Shown here in pieces: positions 6,001-12,000 of a DNA stretch of 64,000 bases. Location: positions 96,001-160,000 of the forward strand of contig CAVPIW010000006.1 of the NCBI GenBank assembly GCA_963705105.1, read 5' to 3'. This DNA is from an uncultured Nitrospiraceae bacterium. Lineage in GTDB: Bacteria > Nitrospirota > Thermodesulfovibrionia > Thermodesulfovibrionales > Dissulfurispiraceae. Each line of letters starts with the position of its first letter. Position 1 is the stretch's first letter. The position numbers were made by a program.

Positions 6001-9000
6001 TCTATCTCGTCGCGTCCTGCGGGAGCAAGGGCACCTGCGGAAAGTGCAAGGTCAAGATTCTCGAGGGAAAGCACCGGGTCGCCTCCTACGGCAAACTGAG
6101 CGAACAGGACAGGGCGTCACACATCGTCCTCGCCTGCCAGACCTTTCCCGAGGAGGATCTCTTTGTCGAGGTCCTGAAGGAGTCCCGCCTCGTCGTCGGC
6201 GACAAGATCGCCATAGCCAGGACAAAGGAACTTGCCGCGTACCTGAAATCGTTCGGCGTCGAGCCCGACCCGATCGTCAGGAGGATATTCCTCGAGCTTC
6301 CGCCTCCGAGCATCGATGACAGCATCAGCGATCTTGAACGCATCAAGCGTCATCTCGCGCCGATGGGCCTCGGGAACATGCGGTTCTCCTACGAGTTCGT
6401 CTCGATGATGGAAAAAACGCTCAGGGACGCCGACTGGAAGGTGGATCTCACCTATATCCGGACCCAGGGAAATGATAATAAAGAAGCCCTCTTCCTGACG
6501 TCCCCAAAGGAGTGCGCGCGCCGTCACGGCATAGCCGTTGATATCGGGACGACGACCGTCGTCGTTTACCTGGTCAATCTCTTCACCGGTGAGATCGTGG
6601 ATCTCGGCTCCACCTACAACTCCCAGATGCGCCACGGTGACGACGTCATCACGAGGATCATCTATGCGACGGAGAAGCAGGGCCTCCATGAACTGCGCAG
6701 GGCTATCAATGCAGACATCAACACGATTATCGAGTCGCTCATCGAGCGGCAGAAGATCGAGCATTGCGAGATCGACTCGGCGGCGATCGCCGGCAACACG
6801 ACAATGGTTCACATCTTCTGGGGCCTCGATCCGTCGTCGATCCGCGTCGAACCCTACATCCCCACATTGAATTACTTTCCTCTCTGGCAGGGGTCGACAG
6901 CCCGCCTGGCTATCAATCCCCAGGCGCCTGTCTATACATTGCCCTGCGTCGCAAGTTACGTGGGCGGAGACATCGTCTCGGGCGTCCTCGCCACCAAGAT
7001 GCACCGGAACCCTGAGGTCGCCCTCTTCATGGACATCGGGACGAACGGGGAACTCGCCATCGGCAACAACGAATGGCTCATGACGGCGGCCTGCTCGGCC
7101 GGTCCCTGCTTCGAGGGAAGCGGGATACGATGCGGTATGAGGGCCACCCCGGGCGCCATCGAGGCGGTCAGGATCGATCCGGTGACTCACGACCCTCAGA
7201 TCACCGTCATCGGAGGAGGGACCCCTCTCGGCATCTGCGGGTCCGGTATGATCGACGCCATTTCGGAGATGTACCTCACCAGGACGATCGATCAGAGGGG
7301 CAAGTTCATCGAGGGAATTACGGACCGGATCATAAAGGGAGACGAGGGACTGGAGTACGTCCTCTACCGCGACGAGCGGCACGGCAGGGACATCCTCCTG
7401 ACGGAGGTGGACATCGAAAACGTGCTGAGGGCGAAGGCCGCTATTTACGCGGGTATAATGACGATGCTCTCCGAGATCGGCTTCACCCTCGATGCCGTCG
7501 ATACGATCTATGTCGCCGGCGGCTTCGGCAATTACATCAATGTCGAACGGGCCATCACCCTCGGCATGCTCCCGGACATTCCCAAGGAGCGGTATAAGTT
7601 TATGGGCAACACGTCCGTCACGGGCGCCTACCTGACCCTCCTGTCGGAAGACCTCAGGAGGGAAGCCGACGAGATCGCCCAGAAAATGACCTATCTCGAG
7701 CTGTCCGTGTCGAGGAACTTCATGGACCAGTTCCTGTCGGCCCTTTTCCTCCCCCACACCGACATGAGCCAGTTCCCCACGGTGGCCGGGCTCATGAACA
7801 TCGGGCATGAATAGATGATAACCGTCGGCATCGGAGTCCATGGGTTTCTGGCATGACATAAGGCGTGATTTCAGGGCCGTTTTCGAGAGGGACCCGGCGG
7901 CGCGGAACGCCGTCGAGGTGCTCATCACCTATCCCGGTCTCCACGCGATCATGCTGCACCGGATCTCCCATGCCCTCTGGAACATCGGTATCCCTGTCAT
8001 ACCAAGGCTCCTCTCGCACATAACACGGTTCCTCACAGGCATCGAGATCCACCCGGCAGCGAAGATCGGGCCGGGCTTCTTCATTGACCACGGCATGGGC
8101 GTCGTCATCGGCGAGACGACGGAGATCGGAGAGGACTGCCTCCTCTACCAGGGCGTGACTCTCGGGGGAACGGGCAAGGAAAAAGGGAAGCGCCACCCGA
8201 CGCTCGGCAACCACGTCGTCGTCGGCACGGGCGCAAAGGTGCTCGGTCCGATGAGGATCGGCGATTACGTGAAGATCGGGGCGAATTCAGTCGTCCTGAA
8301 CCCGGTTCCCGACTACTCCATCGTCGTCGGCGTGCCGGGCAGGATCATCAAGAAAAAGGTCATGCGTTTCGATGAGGGCGGGATCGTCGAGGCCCTCGAC
8401 CATGTCCGCCTGCCGGACCCCGTGGACGAAAAACTGAATGAGCTGACGGAATACATCAGGCGGCTGGAATCGCGCATCGAACGGATGGAGGGTAAAGGAG
8501 GGAGAATGAAGATCTTCAACACGATGACGGGAAAGAAGGAGGAATTCACCCCCCTGACGCCCGGCAAGGTCGGCATCTACGCCTGCGGTGTCACCGTCTA
8601 TGACTATTGCCACATCGGCCACGCCCGGAGCACCGTCGTCTTCGATGTCATCAAGCGGTACCTGGCGTACAAGGGGTTCGACGTGACCTTTGTCAGGAAC
8701 TTCACCGACATAGACGACAAGATCATCAAGAGGGCCGCTGAAGAGGGTTCGACGTGGGACGCCGTGGCGAAAAAGTACATCGACGAATATTACAGGGACA
8801 TGGACAGGCTCGGCGTGGACCGCGCCGACAAGGAGCCGAAAGCGACGGAGCATATAGAGGACATGATCGGGATCATCGGCACGCTTATCGGGAAGGGTTT
8901 TGCCTATGAGGTCCCCGAGGGAGAGAACAAAAGCGTCTATTTCTCCGTCGGCGCTTTCCGGGAATACGGGAAGCTGTCGGGGAAGGAGCAGGATGACCTC

Positions 9001-12000
9001 CTCGCCGGCGCCCGCGTCGACGTGAACGAGCAGAAGAGAAACCCTATGGATTTCGCCCTGTGGAAGGCGTCGAAGGAGGGCGAGCCCTGGTGGCAGAGCC
9101 CCTGGGGAAAGGGGAGGCCCGGCTGGCATATCGAGTGCACCGCCATGTCGATCAGGCATCTCGGCGAGAGCATCGACATTCATGGCGGCGGCGCTGACCT
9201 CATCTTTCCGCATCACGAAAACGAGATCGCCCAGTCCGAGGCGTACACGGGCAAACCCTTCGCGCGGTACTGGGTGCATAACGGGTTCATCACCGTCGAC
9301 AAGGAGAAGATGTCGAAATCGCTCGGCAACTTCTTCACCCTCCGGGAGATCCTCGATGTGTGCGATCCCGAAGTGGTCAGGCTCTTCCTCCTTTCGAGCC
9401 ATTACCGGAGCCCCATCGAATTCTCGCAGGAGCAGCTCAGGGACGCCGAATCGTCTCTTGACCGTTACTACACGACGAGGGGGAGGATCGACGAGTTCCT
9501 GTCCCGGGGCGCCGAGGGAAAAAAGAAAGGCGCCGACCCCGCCGGATTCGACAAGATCCTGACGGAAGCGATGCAGGGGTTCGATGACGCCATGGACGAC
9601 GATTTCAACACCGCCCAGGCGATCGGTCACGTCTTTGAGTGCATCAGGGAGGTCAACCGGTTCCTCGACTCGAAAGCGGCAGGAGACGGTGCGGTGAGAG
9701 TCGTCACCAGGGCGCGGGAGATGCTCGACACGATGGGCGGCGTTCTCCATCTTTTCAGGAGAACGCCCATTCAGTGGAACCGGGACCTGTTGCAGACCAA
9801 AAAAATCCCGCTCACAGAGGACGATATCCTCACCCGCATTGAAGAGCGACGGAGCGCGAGGGAGCAGAAGGACTGGGCGCTTGCCGACAACATCAGGAAT
9901 ACCCTGGAGGAGCAGGGTGTCGTCCTCGAGGACAAGAAAGACGGCACCACCTGGAGGGTAAAGATTGCCTGAACCTAATCTTTGCATAGGCCTGCCGGAA
10001 AGTAGGGGTGGATGCACCGAAAACCTTGCTGCGGCGACACCTGTATCAAAAGGTCAGACGAACTATACACCAATGGTCGATGACAATAAGAGTGGAATCC
10101 TGAAACACGAAGCTGACAATGCGTATCGTCGCCTTCAGCAAGGCTTTGAGGCGCTTCGCCCCTACTTTCCATGCAACTGAAGGATGAGCAGGCCGGTGGC
10201 GAGGTCTGGGTATGGGGCCAGAATCCCGTTATGGAGGCGCTCAGGGCAGGACGGGCCCTCTCCGTGGTCTACATCTCCGGGGCAAGAAAGGATGCGGGGG
10301 AGGTCTCCCGGTTCGTCAAGACCAAGGGAGTTCCTGTTAAGATCGTTGGCCGGGACTTCTTTGAAGGCAGGTTCGACAAGGGACACCAGGGCATTGCCGC
10401 CCTTGCCCTCCCCAGGGCGGCAGCCGGACTTGATGAGATCATCGGGGAATGCCGGGACCGCGGTGTCATGCCTTTCTTTCTCGTGCTGGACGGCATCGAG
10501 GACCCGCGGAATTTCGGCGCCATCCTGAGGGTGGCAGACGCCGCGGGCGTCCACGGCGTCGTCTTCCAGACCCGCCGGTCCGCGGGCATCACTCCCGTCG
10601 TGTCGAAGGCCTCGGCGGGAGCCGTGGAGCATGTCGCCCTCGTCAATGTTGTGAATATCAAGCACGCCCTGCGCACGATGAAAGAAGAGGGGATTACGGT
10701 CATCGGCGCCGAGGCATCCGCCACGATGACCTTCTGGGATGCGGACATGAAAGGCCCCGTCGCTTTCGTCGTCGGCTCCGAGGGACAGGGACTCAGGCTC
10801 ACCGTGAGGGAGCAGTGTGACGTCGTCGTCAGCCTCCCCATGGCGGGAAAGGTGAATTCCCTCAACGTCTCCGTCGCAACAGGCATCATGGCCTATGAGC
10901 TTGTGCGGCAGAGGAGGGAGGGCTTCAGAAAGGGCTTAACGGGATTTTAGAAACGATAAGGTACACCCTCAACGGGCATATTCCTTGACCAGCTTTTCAG
11001 AATGTTCGACAATATCGCCAATCACATGAGACAATGTGATGGATAACACCGCAAGTTCCTGATCATTCATCAGATTGCTGTCTTCGATCCTTGCTTCGTG
11101 GGTAGTTTTTATCGGGTCGATTTCCCTCAGTTTTAAAATCTGGCTTCTTAAGAGGATCATCTGTAGCTTTCCTCATCTTCTTTATAGGCCGAAGAGGCCG
11201 CAAAGCTTCCTTGGGCAACAGGTTCCTGACGGTCTTACGGACCCTACGCGCGAGTCGCACAGCTTTTCTTGCTTCAGTTAGTGTGGGATCTTCCGCCTCT
11301 CCCGGATACCGCGTCACAATTGCATAATCCGTTAGCAAATCCTGTTCTGCCGGGGACAAAAGATCAGGTCTTTCAGGATGCAAAAGTGCCATAAGCAAAG
11401 ACAGATTGTGCGTCTTGGGAGAAGGTGTCCCGTTCCATGCCAATAATGCCTTTAGATATTTTTCGACACATTGCTGCGCATGGTAACAAACAGTGTCTGT
11501 GGGGCAGTCATAGCCCATTTTTAAAGTATTTGCGGCGTTCTTGAGGTCGTTTTCACCTTTATGGATCCATTCACGGACAACATCCGCGACTCGCTCATGC
11601 TTTGGCATACAGCACTCTGCCTTCGTGAACTGCGGGCCACTCGATCGTTCCGACAACATCTTTTCGCCATTCAAATTCCGCGGGATCGCTTACGAGCACG
11701 TCTTTTGCCAATCGTATATCGTGTAACGCACTTCGTATCTGAAGCCGAACCAGTCGCTTCGATCCTTTAACGGGCATCACAACCAGAAGGTCAACATCAC
11801 TGTCAGGGCCCGCAGTCCCTCTCGCATGAGAACCGAAAAGAATAATTTTATCCGGATGAAATTGCGTCACGATCCGACTCACCATTTCCTGTATTAGGTC
11901 TTGAGTCGTTTGTTTTGTTGTTCCTTTCGCCAAGATGGTCACTCTCCTCTTGATACGCCCAGGCCCCGCGTCAAGCAACATTAGCCTGTCGATATCTTTT

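Follow-up and report, generated by a model that had tools for sequence, protein, structure and literature searches.

The window, the whole 64,000-nt stretch of DNA that was analysed (contig positions 96,001-160,000), carries on its plus strand one open reading frame in which serine acetyltransferase (SAT, the cysE product), the enzyme that opens cysteine synthesis, is fused to cysteinyl-tRNA synthetase (CysRS, the cysS product), which charges tRNA with cysteine. The gene, its parts and its neighbours are the following.

5919..7814, plus strand: RACo-type reductive activator of corrinoid proteins, the upstream neighbour (Pfam Fer2, RACo_linker, Raco_middle and RACo_C_ter; context only)
7833..7836, plus strand: weak Shine-Dalgarno (SD)-like GGAG, separated by 3 nt from the first ATG (read from the sequence)
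7840..9972, plus strand: fused cysE-cysS ORF, with ATG start, 710 codons and a TGA stop at 9970-9972
7840..8037, plus strand: short alpha-helical N-terminal SAT subdomain, residues 1-66 (AF2 prediction, Pfam SATase_N, PRK11132)
8038..8355, plus strand: left-handed beta-helix (hexapeptide) catalytic domain of SAT, residues 67-172, with E69, D83, H84, R118 and H119 (profile matches and 1SSQ alignment)
8419..8490, plus strand: amphipathic heptad-repeat helix, residues 194-217, after an invariant P-D-P (192-194)
8494..8508, plus strand: putative internal ribosome-binding site and start, AAAGGAGGG, with GGAGG at 8497-8501, a 4-nt spacer and ATG at 8506-8508 (codon 223)
8506..9969, plus strand: complete CysRS, residues 223-710, beginning at its native N-terminus (Pfam and NCBIfam matches, 1LI5 alignment)
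10171..10950, plus strand: SpoU/TrmH-type RNA 2'-O-methyltransferase, RlmB-like, the downstream neighbour (Pfam SpoU_sub_bind and SpoU_methylase; context only)

In NCBIfam, residues 7-168 match TIGR01172 (cysE) from end to end (positions 1-162 of 162; 243.7 bits, cut-off 210.65) and residues 223-707 match positions 1-465 of 466 of TIGR00435 (cysS; 558.1 bits, cut-off 340). Pfam places Hexapep at 119-153, tRNA-synt_1e at 236-537, DALR_2 at 581-639 and CysS_C at 668-706, with SATase_N at 6-37 falling slightly short of its 21-bit cut-off (20.5 bits; model positions 72-103 of 105 only). The frame and these matches bear out the initial annotation, which had a CysE-like part (residues 1-222) running into a full CysRS (223-710), and the 710-residue protein is very probably a real bifunctional fusion; it is a new arrangement of ordinary parts. 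Each of the two NCBIfam models has a single match above cut-off in this genome (completeness 99.36%), the runners-up scoring 27.7 bits for TIGR01172 and 33.5 bits for TIGR00435. The fused gene is the genome's only source of SAT, as had been claimed, and also of CysRS; two cysK/cysM-type genes, whose presence elsewhere had also been noted, lie on other contigs. Of the bifunctional coupling enzyme that had been proposed, the two complete enzymes in one chain stand, but the coupling of the committed step of cysteine synthesis to tRNA charging is not supported in that form: O-acetylserine sulfhydrylase, encoded on other contigs, acts in between, so the SAT and CysRS reactions are not consecutive, and no sign of a contact between the two domains emerged.

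Judged by its sequence, the N-terminal part is a complete short-type serine O-acetyltransferase. Its helical subdomain (helices 3-17, 24-30, 32-49 and 54-66 in the AF2 prediction) corresponds to the last third only of the long-type N-domain, the PRK11132 match beginning at model position 82. Residues D18, E69, D83, H84, R118 and H119, the counterparts of D88, D139, D153, H154, R188 and H189 of 1SSQ, are invariant in 48 genus-level sequences. In the heptad helix that follows, hydrophobic residues make up at least 0.92 of positions 195, 199, 202, 206, 209 and 213 and 0.75 of position 216. The AF2 monomer has a helix at 194-216 at low pLDDT, and the whole region 175-222, with the hinge, is of low confidence. 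The same tail closes the CysE of stand-alone and split relatives; what looks like a linker is, on this comparison, the coiled-coil tail native to this CysE subfamily rather than a new linker, and it would form a coiled coil on the axis of a trimer. The CysRS part has HIGH at 258-261, KMSKS at 490-494 and zinc ligands C249, C433, H458 and E462 (C28, C209, H234 and E238 of 1LI5), all invariant in the same number of genus-level sequences (48).

The fused gene begins 25 nt past the stop codon of the RACo gene. There is no promoter-like site upstream of it in the window, and neither a T-box nor another Rfam leader was found ahead of it. In 39 of 73 relatives' genes the start codon is preceded at 5-13 nt by an exact TATAAT; an SD-like 4-mer stands before it in just 2 of the 73. 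From motif spacing alone, the fusion mRNA of many relatives looks leaderless. That reading is limited to the relatives, since the gene described here has no TATAAT at its 5' end and follows so closely on RACo.

The distribution of the joint was followed with query residues 1-330 in 121 Thermodesulfovibrionales genomes, this one counted. Ninety of them have an in-frame joint: 86 give an uninterrupted match over residues 1-330, and in the remainder (G092, G094, G102 and G114) the gene is cut or broken elsewhere. Three genomes (G003, G016 and G028) have adjacent, separate cysE and cysS genes, 25 have a CysRS beginning at about residue 207-222 without CysE, and 3 yield no useful match. No SAT above cut-off was found in the 5 CysRS-only genomes checked. 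Twelve of the 13 families include at least one fused genome; that the fusion is the rule in this order, first stated from 40 genomes and 10 of 13 families, holds on the larger sample. The in-frame joint recurs in 9 of 9 genomes sampled from other orders of the class Thermodesulfovibrionia, and the fusion prevails both in its own order and, beyond that, in the class. Fused genes make up 31 of the best 80 loci from 185,579 species genomes, with Nitrospirota-type titles where a taxon is given. Among the matches listed from other classes or phyla, in which cysE and cysS are separate, the fusion did not appear; among the best 150 representatives of 1.84 billion proteins, one cluster only crosses the joint. 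Evolution can nevertheless dispense with the fusion, as the 25 CysRS-only and 3 split-gene genomes among the 121 show.

What is new here is a conserved SD sequence and start-type codon at the CysRS boundary of the fused genes, in a stretch that the fusion frame reads as a five-residue Gly-rich hinge, K-G-G-R-M. Codon 223 is ATG in 72 of the 86 fused genes, TTG in 7, GTG in 5, and GTA and CTG in 1 each. Thus, 84 of the 86 have a start-type codon (ATG, GTG or TTG) there, and the single GTA case has GTG immediately before it; an Ile codon is absent from all 86. In the same genes TTG accounts for 7.7% of Leu codons and GTG for 33.6% of Val codons, and other Met columns behave differently: column 342 drifts (ATG 43, ATH 43), column 229 has CTN in 51 against TTG in 5, and column 403 has CTN in 15 and TTG in 0 among its six commonest codons. 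GGAGG stands at -16 to -4 in 54 of the 86 genes, compared with 2.4% of other codon positions, and its spacer to codon 223 is 4 nt in 53. It is kept because synonymous GGA codons are used, the first codon of the Gly-Gly pair beside the start being GGA in 55 of 62 cases, as against 91 of 329 elsewhere. Around the internal start there is also less structure than elsewhere along the gene (mean z +1.08; among the least-structured 3% of 50-nt windows in the gene described here), a result confounded by the lower G+C content at the joint (0.457 vs 0.501). Those CysRS-only rows that were examined begin at the residue aligned with 223.

A conserved SD sequence and start codon at residue 223 argue that free CysRS is made too, and on balance we favour internal initiation at codon 223 as its source. 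The other way to see these signals, which we think rather unlikely, is that the 710-residue fusion is the only product, its SD-like site and start codon being kept for reasons of protein structure or surviving as decaying relics. Only hydrophobic residues (M, L or V) occur at 223, and residues 218-221 are mostly G or K: Met, Leu or Val could partly reflect the hydrophobic first strand residue of CysRS, and K-G-G could be under selection as a hinge. The full GGAGG is missing in 32 of the 86 genes, and a 4-nt spacer is short for an SD sequence. Nor are the fused genes independent: TTG at 223 is confined to family f5, where it is probably one event, and GTG to f1 and f6. Against a single product, Ile, the easiest conservative change from ATG, never appears at 223 yet is common at other Met columns; seven of the eight Leu residues at 223 are encoded by the rare TTG; the first Gly is GGA far beyond the 28% seen elsewhere; and at 60-80% protein identity a relic would be expected to have decayed.

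The joint is, in our judgement, probably best explained as a bifunctional fusion of adjacent genes that also gives free CysRS. Three modules would follow one another, a short-type SAT (1-172), its own heptad tail (194-217) with the hinge, and a housekeeping CysRS from 223. The old cysS translation signals (GGAGG, 4 nt, then ATG, GTG or TTG) appear to be still selected inside the fused frame, which makes two nested products of one mRNA most likely: CysE-CysRS from the 5' start and free CysRS from codon 223. All of the cell's SAT would then be tethered to CysRS, presumably as a trimer that the beta-helix and the coiled coil hold together, and CysRS would exist in both tethered and free form. What the fusion mainly achieves may be that the enzymes of cysteine supply and cysteine use are always expressed together, rather than any channelling of substrate. 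The observations themselves are the frame, its domains, their conservation and the codon and SD statistics; from them we infer the two activities, both products, the oligomer and the benefit.

How the fusion arose can be read from its relatives. At 19 loci of Bacillota, Chloroflexota and Omnitrophota, cysS directly follows cysE, with stops or a frame change between them; in 2 of the 3 split relatives of genus g11 the genes share an ATGA stop/start overlap, and the g11 CysE ends in the same tail. The caveat that came with the initial annotation, loss of a stop codon between operon neighbours, was right as to origin, as the adjacency in the 19 loci and in g11 indicates. A tree with all fused rows as one clade apart from the non-fused ones is rejected (CysRS data, p-AU 0.0013), a CysRS-only row of family f10 is sister to fused f1 (CysRS tree, SH-aLRT 98), and a position of g11 outside all fused forms is compatible with the AU tests (CysE p 0.60, CysRS p 0.06). 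The fusion probably arose once, from adjacent genes. In the ancestor of the class Thermodesulfovibrionia, a cysE/cysS stop-start junction would have lost its cysE stop; several lineages would later have shed the CysE part, and g11, the one genus in which a split was found, probably re-split the fused gene.

So simple an origin, with ATGA overlaps or in-frame stops in split relatives, also suits a frozen accident, a one-base merger of overlapping genes that brought no advantage and did no harm, leaving both enzymes independent. The two reactions are not consecutive, cysK/cysM lie elsewhere, and CysE was lost in 25 of the 121 genomes and the gene split in 3. We regard this as possible but doubtful, given that the fusion is kept in 90 of the 121 genomes and in all 9 sampled from other orders of the class, and that fission should be easy. 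On average 3.9 of the 6 codons ahead of codon 223 are a single substitution from a stop, with an SD sequence and a start ready behind them; neutral fission should therefore be frequent, and it is seen in one genus only.

Long retention across the class has also been weighed as a sign of direct functional coupling, in which the CysRS domain controls the SAT domain or vice versa. SAT might sense cysteine, Cys-AMP or uncharged tRNA-Cys through CysRS, as a protein-level counterpart of the T-box that controls cysE-cysS in Bacillus, or the trimeric SAT core might be a scaffold that alters the behaviour of CysRS. The conserved tail and invariant P-D-P motif would fit, as would the long branch of the split g11 CysE (0.7 changes per column), though each of these signs is indirect. 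The low-confidence hinge and 175-222 region of the AF2 model, the internal start, which suggests that CysRS functions well untethered, and the ordinary CysRS kept by lineages without the CysE part all make such coupling improbable.

It is far less probable still that the N-domain is another hexapeptide acyltransferase, for example an EpsC-like one or one with an aminoacyl or thiol compound as its substrate. The EpsC model NF041874 does score above cut-off on it (235.6 vs 150), and the canonical catalytic Asp is Glu (E69). The classical contact of SAT with CysK is made through the C-terminal Ile of SAT; in the fusion that C-terminus is not free and the contact cannot form. But TIGR01172, matched end to end above cut-off, is an equivalog model, the residues of the serine and cysteine site do not vary, the genome has two cysK/cysM genes and no other SAT, and EpsC itself carries the annotation serine O-acetyltransferase. 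An error of sequencing or assembly that removed a stop or shifted the frame is refuted by the same open joint in 86 genomes and by contigs from two public metagenome runs, each of a different study, which span the joint at 8505/8506 without a gap (X1 record 4, 8250-8634; X2 record 13, 8150-9231) and for which no indel within the fused gene is listed.

Taken singly, the two halves resemble well-known enzymes. The fusion shares the beta-helix catalytic domain and substrate-site residues of canonical CysE (H. influenzae 1SSQ, E. coli 1T3D), its residues 10-172 aligning with residues 80-242 of 1SSQ (E 3.5e-47), but about 70-80 residues at the N-terminal side of the helical domain are missing, Glu (E69) replaces the catalytic Asp, and the SAT part closes with a heptad helix that continues into CysRS, where the canonical tail is free and flexible. 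E. coli CysRS (1LI5) aligns along its full length (residues 2-461, E 2.6e-143) and has HIGH, KMSKS, the zinc ligands and the anticodon-binding domains in common with the fusion, which bears a second enzyme in 222 additional residues at its N-terminus. The E. coli protein is monomeric, whereas the CysRS of the fusion would hang on a SAT oligomer.

Aminoacyl-tRNA synthetases (aaRS) joined in one chain to another catalytic module are known: metazoan Glu-ProRS, fused GlyRS alpha-beta, LysRS-MprF and IleRS with a GNAT domain (passages of PMC11580382 and PMC5388404; NCBIfam model name NF040702). None of these joins, as CysE-CysRS does, an aaRS to the first enzyme of its own amino acid's pathway, and a CysE-CysRS form is absent from those passages. 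The literature searched held no printed description of a CysE-CysRS fusion, in agreement with what had been stated before; the suspicion that databases might already label it bifunctional proved unfounded, the labels being only 'cysteine--tRNA ligase' or 'hypothetical'.

The adjacent cysE-cysS genes of Bacillota (observed in Thermoanaerobacterium, Thermovorax, Thermosediminibacter, Desulfitobacterium, Fuchsiella and MAGs of Clostridia and Lachnospiraceae) are alike in gene order and in the logic of co-expression. Their short-type CysE has the same P-D-P and heptad tail (50-59% identity), and the cysS start lies at the cysE stop or overlaps it; in contrast with the single frame of the fusion, all 19 loci outside Nitrospirota keep a stop or frame change. 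In Bacillus subtilis the gltX-cysE-cysS operon is under T-box control, for which the fused gene has no counterpart leader; the RlmB-like methyltransferase gene downstream is as in Bacillus, where such a gene also follows cysE-cysS. For the internal start the closest parallels are infB, clpB and cheA of E. coli, in which in-frame internal initiation yields two nested proteins. Like them, the fused gene has an SD sequence and a start inside an open frame, in frame and at a domain boundary; both products have been shown for those three genes, whereas the second product of the fused gene is suggested by sequence conservation only.

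One open frame of 710 codons at window 7840-9972 (+) encodes a serine O-acetyltransferase (SAT, the CysE protein; residues 1-222) that continues into a complete cysteinyl-tRNA synthetase (CysRS, the cysS product; residues 223-710). Pfam places four domains in it:

Residues 119-153: Hexapep.
Residues 236-537: class I CysRS catalytic domain.
Residues 581-639: DALR_2, the anticodon-binding helical domain.
Residues 668-706: CysS_C, the C-terminal domain.

The NCBIfam equivalog for serine O-acetyltransferase, TIGR01172, scores 243.7 bits against a cut-off of 210.65, with residues 7-168 matching positions 1-162 of its 162, and that for cysteine--tRNA ligase, TIGR00435, scores 558.1 bits against a cut-off of 340, with residues 223-707 matching positions 1-465 of 466. 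The initial annotation's description of a single polypeptide, CysE followed by a full CysRS, therefore stands. An assembly error is excluded: two public metagenome runs, each from its own study, yield contigs that span the joint (the boundary at codon 223) without a gap. The genome is 99.36% complete, and this gene is its only SAT and its only CysRS above the model cut-offs; the single TIGR01172 match bears out the earlier claim that no other CysE is encoded, and the single TIGR00435 match implies a housekeeping role for the CysRS part. The genome's two cysK/cysM-type genes lie on other contigs.

The SAT part has the left-handed beta-helix of hexapeptide repeats, recognizable in the Hexapep domain, in short strands at 81-163 of the structure model and in the alignment with the H. 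influenzae SAT structure 1SSQ (E 3.5e-47). In that alignment D18, E69, D83, H84, R118 and H119 fall opposite D88, D139, D153, H154, R188 and H189, which we take, from the H. influenzae and E. coli structures, to be the catalytic histidine with its acidic partner and the serine-cysteine site; the acidic partner is glutamate (E69) here, not aspartate. The N-terminal helical domain of long-type SATs (SATase_N) is not present in full, with model positions 72-103 of 105 matched at 20.5 bits, below the cut-off of 21, and the long-type model PRK11132 begins to match at its position 82 (161.9 against a cut-off of 397). With only the last third of SATase_N retained, this is thus a SAT of the short type. 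The free C-terminal tail of CysE, ending in isoleucine, is what binds CysK in the cysteine synthase complex. The fused SAT part has no such free tail, since the chain runs on into CysRS, and the CysE proteins of stand-alone loci (L109, L111, L114) and of split loci (L033-L035) end otherwise than in isoleucine, for example in ...KKRLP, ...KESIL, ...RVENN or ...GIGEK.

The CysRS part aligns with E. coli CysRS (1LI5, residues 2-461; E 2.6e-143), and its first residue is exactly the native N-terminal residue of the free enzyme. C249, C433, H458 and E462 fall opposite C28, C209, H234 and E238, presumably the zinc ligands that select cysteine, and H258-I-G-H261 and K490-M-S-K-S494 can be read in the sequence and show little or no variation. 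When 48 fused proteins, one from each genus, are aligned, the active-site residues of SAT and CysRS are all invariant; both halves are thus under purifying selection. The parts of the fusion are ordinary enzymes of known kinds. Judged by its sequence, the fused protein would have acetyl-CoA:serine O-acetyltransferase activity, and its CysRS half is likewise predicted to be active.

That the fusion is the rule in its order, the Thermodesulfovibrionales, was proposed at the outset and holds in a larger sample. Among 121 genomes of the order, this one included, 86 give a clean, unbroken match to residues 1-330 and in four more, which keep the joint in frame, the gene is interrupted at another place by a contig end, a stretch of N or a frame change; 12 of the 13 families contain at least one fused genome. 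Dissulfurispira thermophila, which has been cultured, is among the bearers of the fused gene, with a 710-aa homologue. Three genomes, of genus g11, have cysE and cysS adjacent but separate, in 25 only CysRS is present, with its start at about residue 207-222 (all 11 of family f10, ten of f12, three of genus g36 in f4 and one of f11), and three give no useful match. In a phylum sample of 301 genomes, all nine from other orders of the same class, the Thermodesulfovibrionia, are fused, and the 216 from other classes show CysE alone among the matches listed (a further 365 were weaker), the best of them at E 3.8e-93 as against 1e-143 or lower for full fused matches. A survey of the best 80 loci from 185,579 species genomes returned 31 fused loci, all with Nitrospirota-type titles or unnamed, one fused locus with a frame change within cysE, 19 loci (Bacillota, Chloroflexota, Omnitrophota) in which cysS directly follows cysE but is parted from it by stops or a frame change, and 29 with CysE only. 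HMMER, run exhaustively against 1.84 billion representatives, lists a single cluster spanning the joint among its best 150 matches, which reach down to about 197 bits, and the clusters of a protein atlas that contain both families come from Nitrospirota only.

Candidates for the same fusion elsewhere were rejected on inspection. Loci L155-L161 (Dehalococcoidales, Clostridia, Lachnospiraceae), L192 (Omnitrophota) and L173 give a long match in a single frame but have stop codons at the junction, and in ten more loci outside Nitrospirota cysE and cysS lie in different frames. Among proteins of the representative library, the SAT query instead finds 6 separate stretches in P0122 (944 aa) and 3 each in P0155 (599 aa) and P0252 (594 aa), which suggests repeated SAT-like modules, and P0183 (495 aa) is another fusion of this CysE, of the short type, followed by indole-3-glycerol-phosphate synthase. 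At L113 (genome G122, family f20 of another class; about 2506-3690, -), the sole locus with an adjacent cysS among nine other-class loci fetched, CysE has a Pro/Ala-rich C-terminal extension of ~190 residues that ends at the cysS start. Two different fused copies, L144 and L153, with 68% and 61% identity to the query, lie on two contigs of one assembly ('Bacterium BMS3Bbin08'), and genome G058 has a fused copy together with a second, CysRS-only gene; these double copies are either paralogues or the product of mixed bins.

The likely precursor arrangement can still be observed. In other phyla the cysE stop is followed directly by the cysS start, and in two of the three g11 genomes with separate genes the TGA of cysE overlaps the ATG of cysS (ATGA); one base change is enough to fuse genes so disposed. 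In a tree of CysRS domains (also made with FastTree), in which L036 and L037 are CysRS-only loci, the CysRS-only family f10 is sister to the fused f1 (SH-aLRT 98), and the split g11 and CysRS-only g36 lie inside a clade of f4 with fused genera (SH-aLRT 95). A tree that joins all 30 fused rows apart from the seven others is rejected (p-AU 0.0013, CysRS data), which places the non-fused forms inside the fused ones. Most simply read, a single fusion took place at the base of the class and losses followed. Placing g11 outside the fused forms gives, in the AU test, p 0.06 with CysRS data and p 0.60 with CysE data, for which the constrained tree is even the better one; the g11 split may be a reversal, as the family assignment suggests, or the old state. 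As for the genomes that lack the CysE part, five of them, all 99-100% complete (G010, G023, G078 and G118 of f10, and G040 of genus g36 in f4), have no SAT above the model cut-off, the best match reaching 43 bits, so that their cysteine must come by another route. At least six f12 genomes have, among the matches listed, a separate and longer CysE-like gene (frames of 314-356 aa, 45-49% identity over residues 7-175), and such a gene is also found in G011 (f11) and in G096 (f1), which carries the fusion as well.

Comparison of sequences indicates that the stretch between the two enzymes, residues 173-222, is not a new linker: in this CysE subfamily, proteins from stand-alone and split loci close with the same tail. 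An invariant P-D-P (192-194) precedes a helix (194-217) with hydrophobic positions at 195, 199, 202, 206, 209, 213 and 216, a 4-3-4-3 heptad spacing that is conserved in the 48 sequences, and a Gly-rich hinge of five residues follows (majority sequence E-G-K-G-G-R). SATs are trimers of beta-helices, from which we infer a three-stranded coiled coil that bears three CysRS domains; the whole would be a trimeric assembly of about 235 kDa with this coiled coil as its stalk. AlphaFold models both enzymes with confidence (mean pLDDT 84.3), residues 175-222 with little, and its whole-chain prediction (pTM 0.69) does not settle contact between the domains; a complex prediction of residues 1-222 against 223-710 (with alignments) scored 0.04, the mark being 0.32, and carries no weight either way.

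The joint itself has the look of a translation start. In the window, AAAGGAGGG is followed by a 4-nt spacer and then by the ATG of codon 223. By column count on the alignment of 86 fused genes, which are relatives and hence not independent, codon 223 is ATG in 72, TTG in 7, GTG in 5, GTA in 1 (where a GTG precedes it) and CTG in 1; ATG, GTG or TTG thus occupies the position in 84 of the 86, and an isoleucine codon in none. TTG, all cases of which are in f5, makes up only 7.7% of the leucine codons in the same genes. The methionine column 342 has drifted as expected (ATG in 43, ATA, ATC or ATT in 43), and leucine at columns 229 and 403 is mainly CTN. GGAGG occurs at -16 to -4 in 54 of the 86 genes, as against 2.4% of 59,610 other codon positions, with a spacer to the start of 4 nt, which is short, in 53. 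Where a Gly-Gly adjoins the start, its first codon is GGA 55 times out of 62, compared with 91 of 329 elsewhere, a synonymous bias that, to judge by these counts, the needs of the protein cannot explain. Predicted mRNA structure is weaker here than in other windows of these genes (mean z +1.08), a difference due in part to the lower G+C of the site. A Shine-Dalgarno (SD) sequence and a start codon have, in short, been kept inside the frame beyond what the protein needs. It seems to us somewhat probable that free CysRS is still made from codon 223, and the one gene would then give two nested products.

The 5' end of the gene presents a different picture. Among 73 fused relatives with known upstream sequence, an exact TATAAT lies 5-13 nt before the first start codon in 39 and a version with one mismatch 3-8 nt before it in eight more; an SD-like 4-mer is found upstream in only two. 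If transcription starts at the customary distance from the -10 box, the mRNAs of these relatives would be leaderless or nearly so. The window differs: the gene begins 25 nt past its upstream neighbour, a weak GGAG lies 3 nt upstream, a promoter scan of the window gave no site upstream of 7840, and the fused gene seems here, on its sequence, to be without a -10 box of its own, unlike many relatives. An Rfam scan of window 4000-12500 at E up to 0.1 found no leader, such as a T-box. The flanks hold the following:

5919-7814 (+): RACo-type reductive activator of corrinoid proteins, with 2Fe-2S ferredoxin and ASKHA domains.
9973-10110: copy of a dispersed repeat (about 138 nt), forming the spacer that separates the fused gene from the rlmB-like gene (10171-10950, +).
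11063-11674 (-) and 11595-12053 (-): overlapping genes for a HEPN-domain protein and a nucleotidyltransferase (NTP_transf_2/Polbeta).

The repeat has at least 42 matches in its own genome (40 of 340 first-look candidates scored), at 83-92% identity, on both strands and on many contigs; four metagenome runs show a spike in contig depth at this place, and the repeat belongs to no Rfam family and folds no better than shuffles (z 0.07). HEPN/MNT toxin-antitoxin systems usually consist of just such a HEPN and nucleotidyltransferase pair; the pair here lies in a stretch of lower G+C (0.47-0.52 versus about 0.6).

What has kept the two enzymes together? On average, 3.9 of the six codons before codon 223 are one substitution away from a stop, with the SD sequence and start codon waiting behind them. 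Fission should be easy, yet a split gene is seen in one genus only, which suggests that selection maintains the fused state; the 25 genomes with CysRS alone are a point against its being necessary. The gain would be a fixed co-expression of cysteine supply and cysteine use. Substrate channelling is unlikely: the O-acetylserine made by SAT has to be converted by CysK or CysM, which are encoded elsewhere, before there is cysteine to charge.

The initial annotation regarded the fusion as undescribed, and the literature agrees as far as it could be searched: a full-text search, which presents titles and the starts of abstracts and covers few subscription journals, yielded no paper describing a CysE-CysRS fusion, and the accessible portions of two synthetase surveys (PMC5388404, PMC11580382) mention no such form. 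Over those same portions, no surveyed architecture joins an aminoacyl-tRNA synthetase to the enzyme that opens the pathway to its own amino acid. Databases call the fused proteins 'cysteine--tRNA ligase', 'cysteinyl-tRNA synthetase' or 'hypothetical'; thousands of entries under the first name alone conceal the organism's SAT, and pathway reconstructions for the class will therefore wrongly report cysteine auxotrophy. Most members of an entire bacterial class appear to draw both activities from the fused gene alone, and the same two genes are found fused, split with an overlap, split in frame, or reduced by loss of the CysE part, four states that make a clean natural experiment on what fusion adds beyond co-expression in an operon. 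If the internal start is real, one mRNA, possibly a leaderless one, gives rise to an enzyme that is both free and tethered.

Direct regulatory coupling of the SAT and CysRS domains is conceivable but improbable. In one version, which we consider a long shot, the tether would be a regulatory device, the bound state of the CysRS domains setting SAT activity and free CysRS, from the internal start, doing the bulk of the charging. Each SAT trimer in the cell would bear three CysRS domains on its coiled-coil stalk, the signal would be cysteine, Cys-AMP or uncharged tRNA-Cys on those domains, and the charging of tRNA-Cys would tune cysteine synthesis directly. Bacillus links cysteine synthesis to tRNA-Cys charging by way of a T-box RNA; a tether working in this manner would make the same link at the level of protein.
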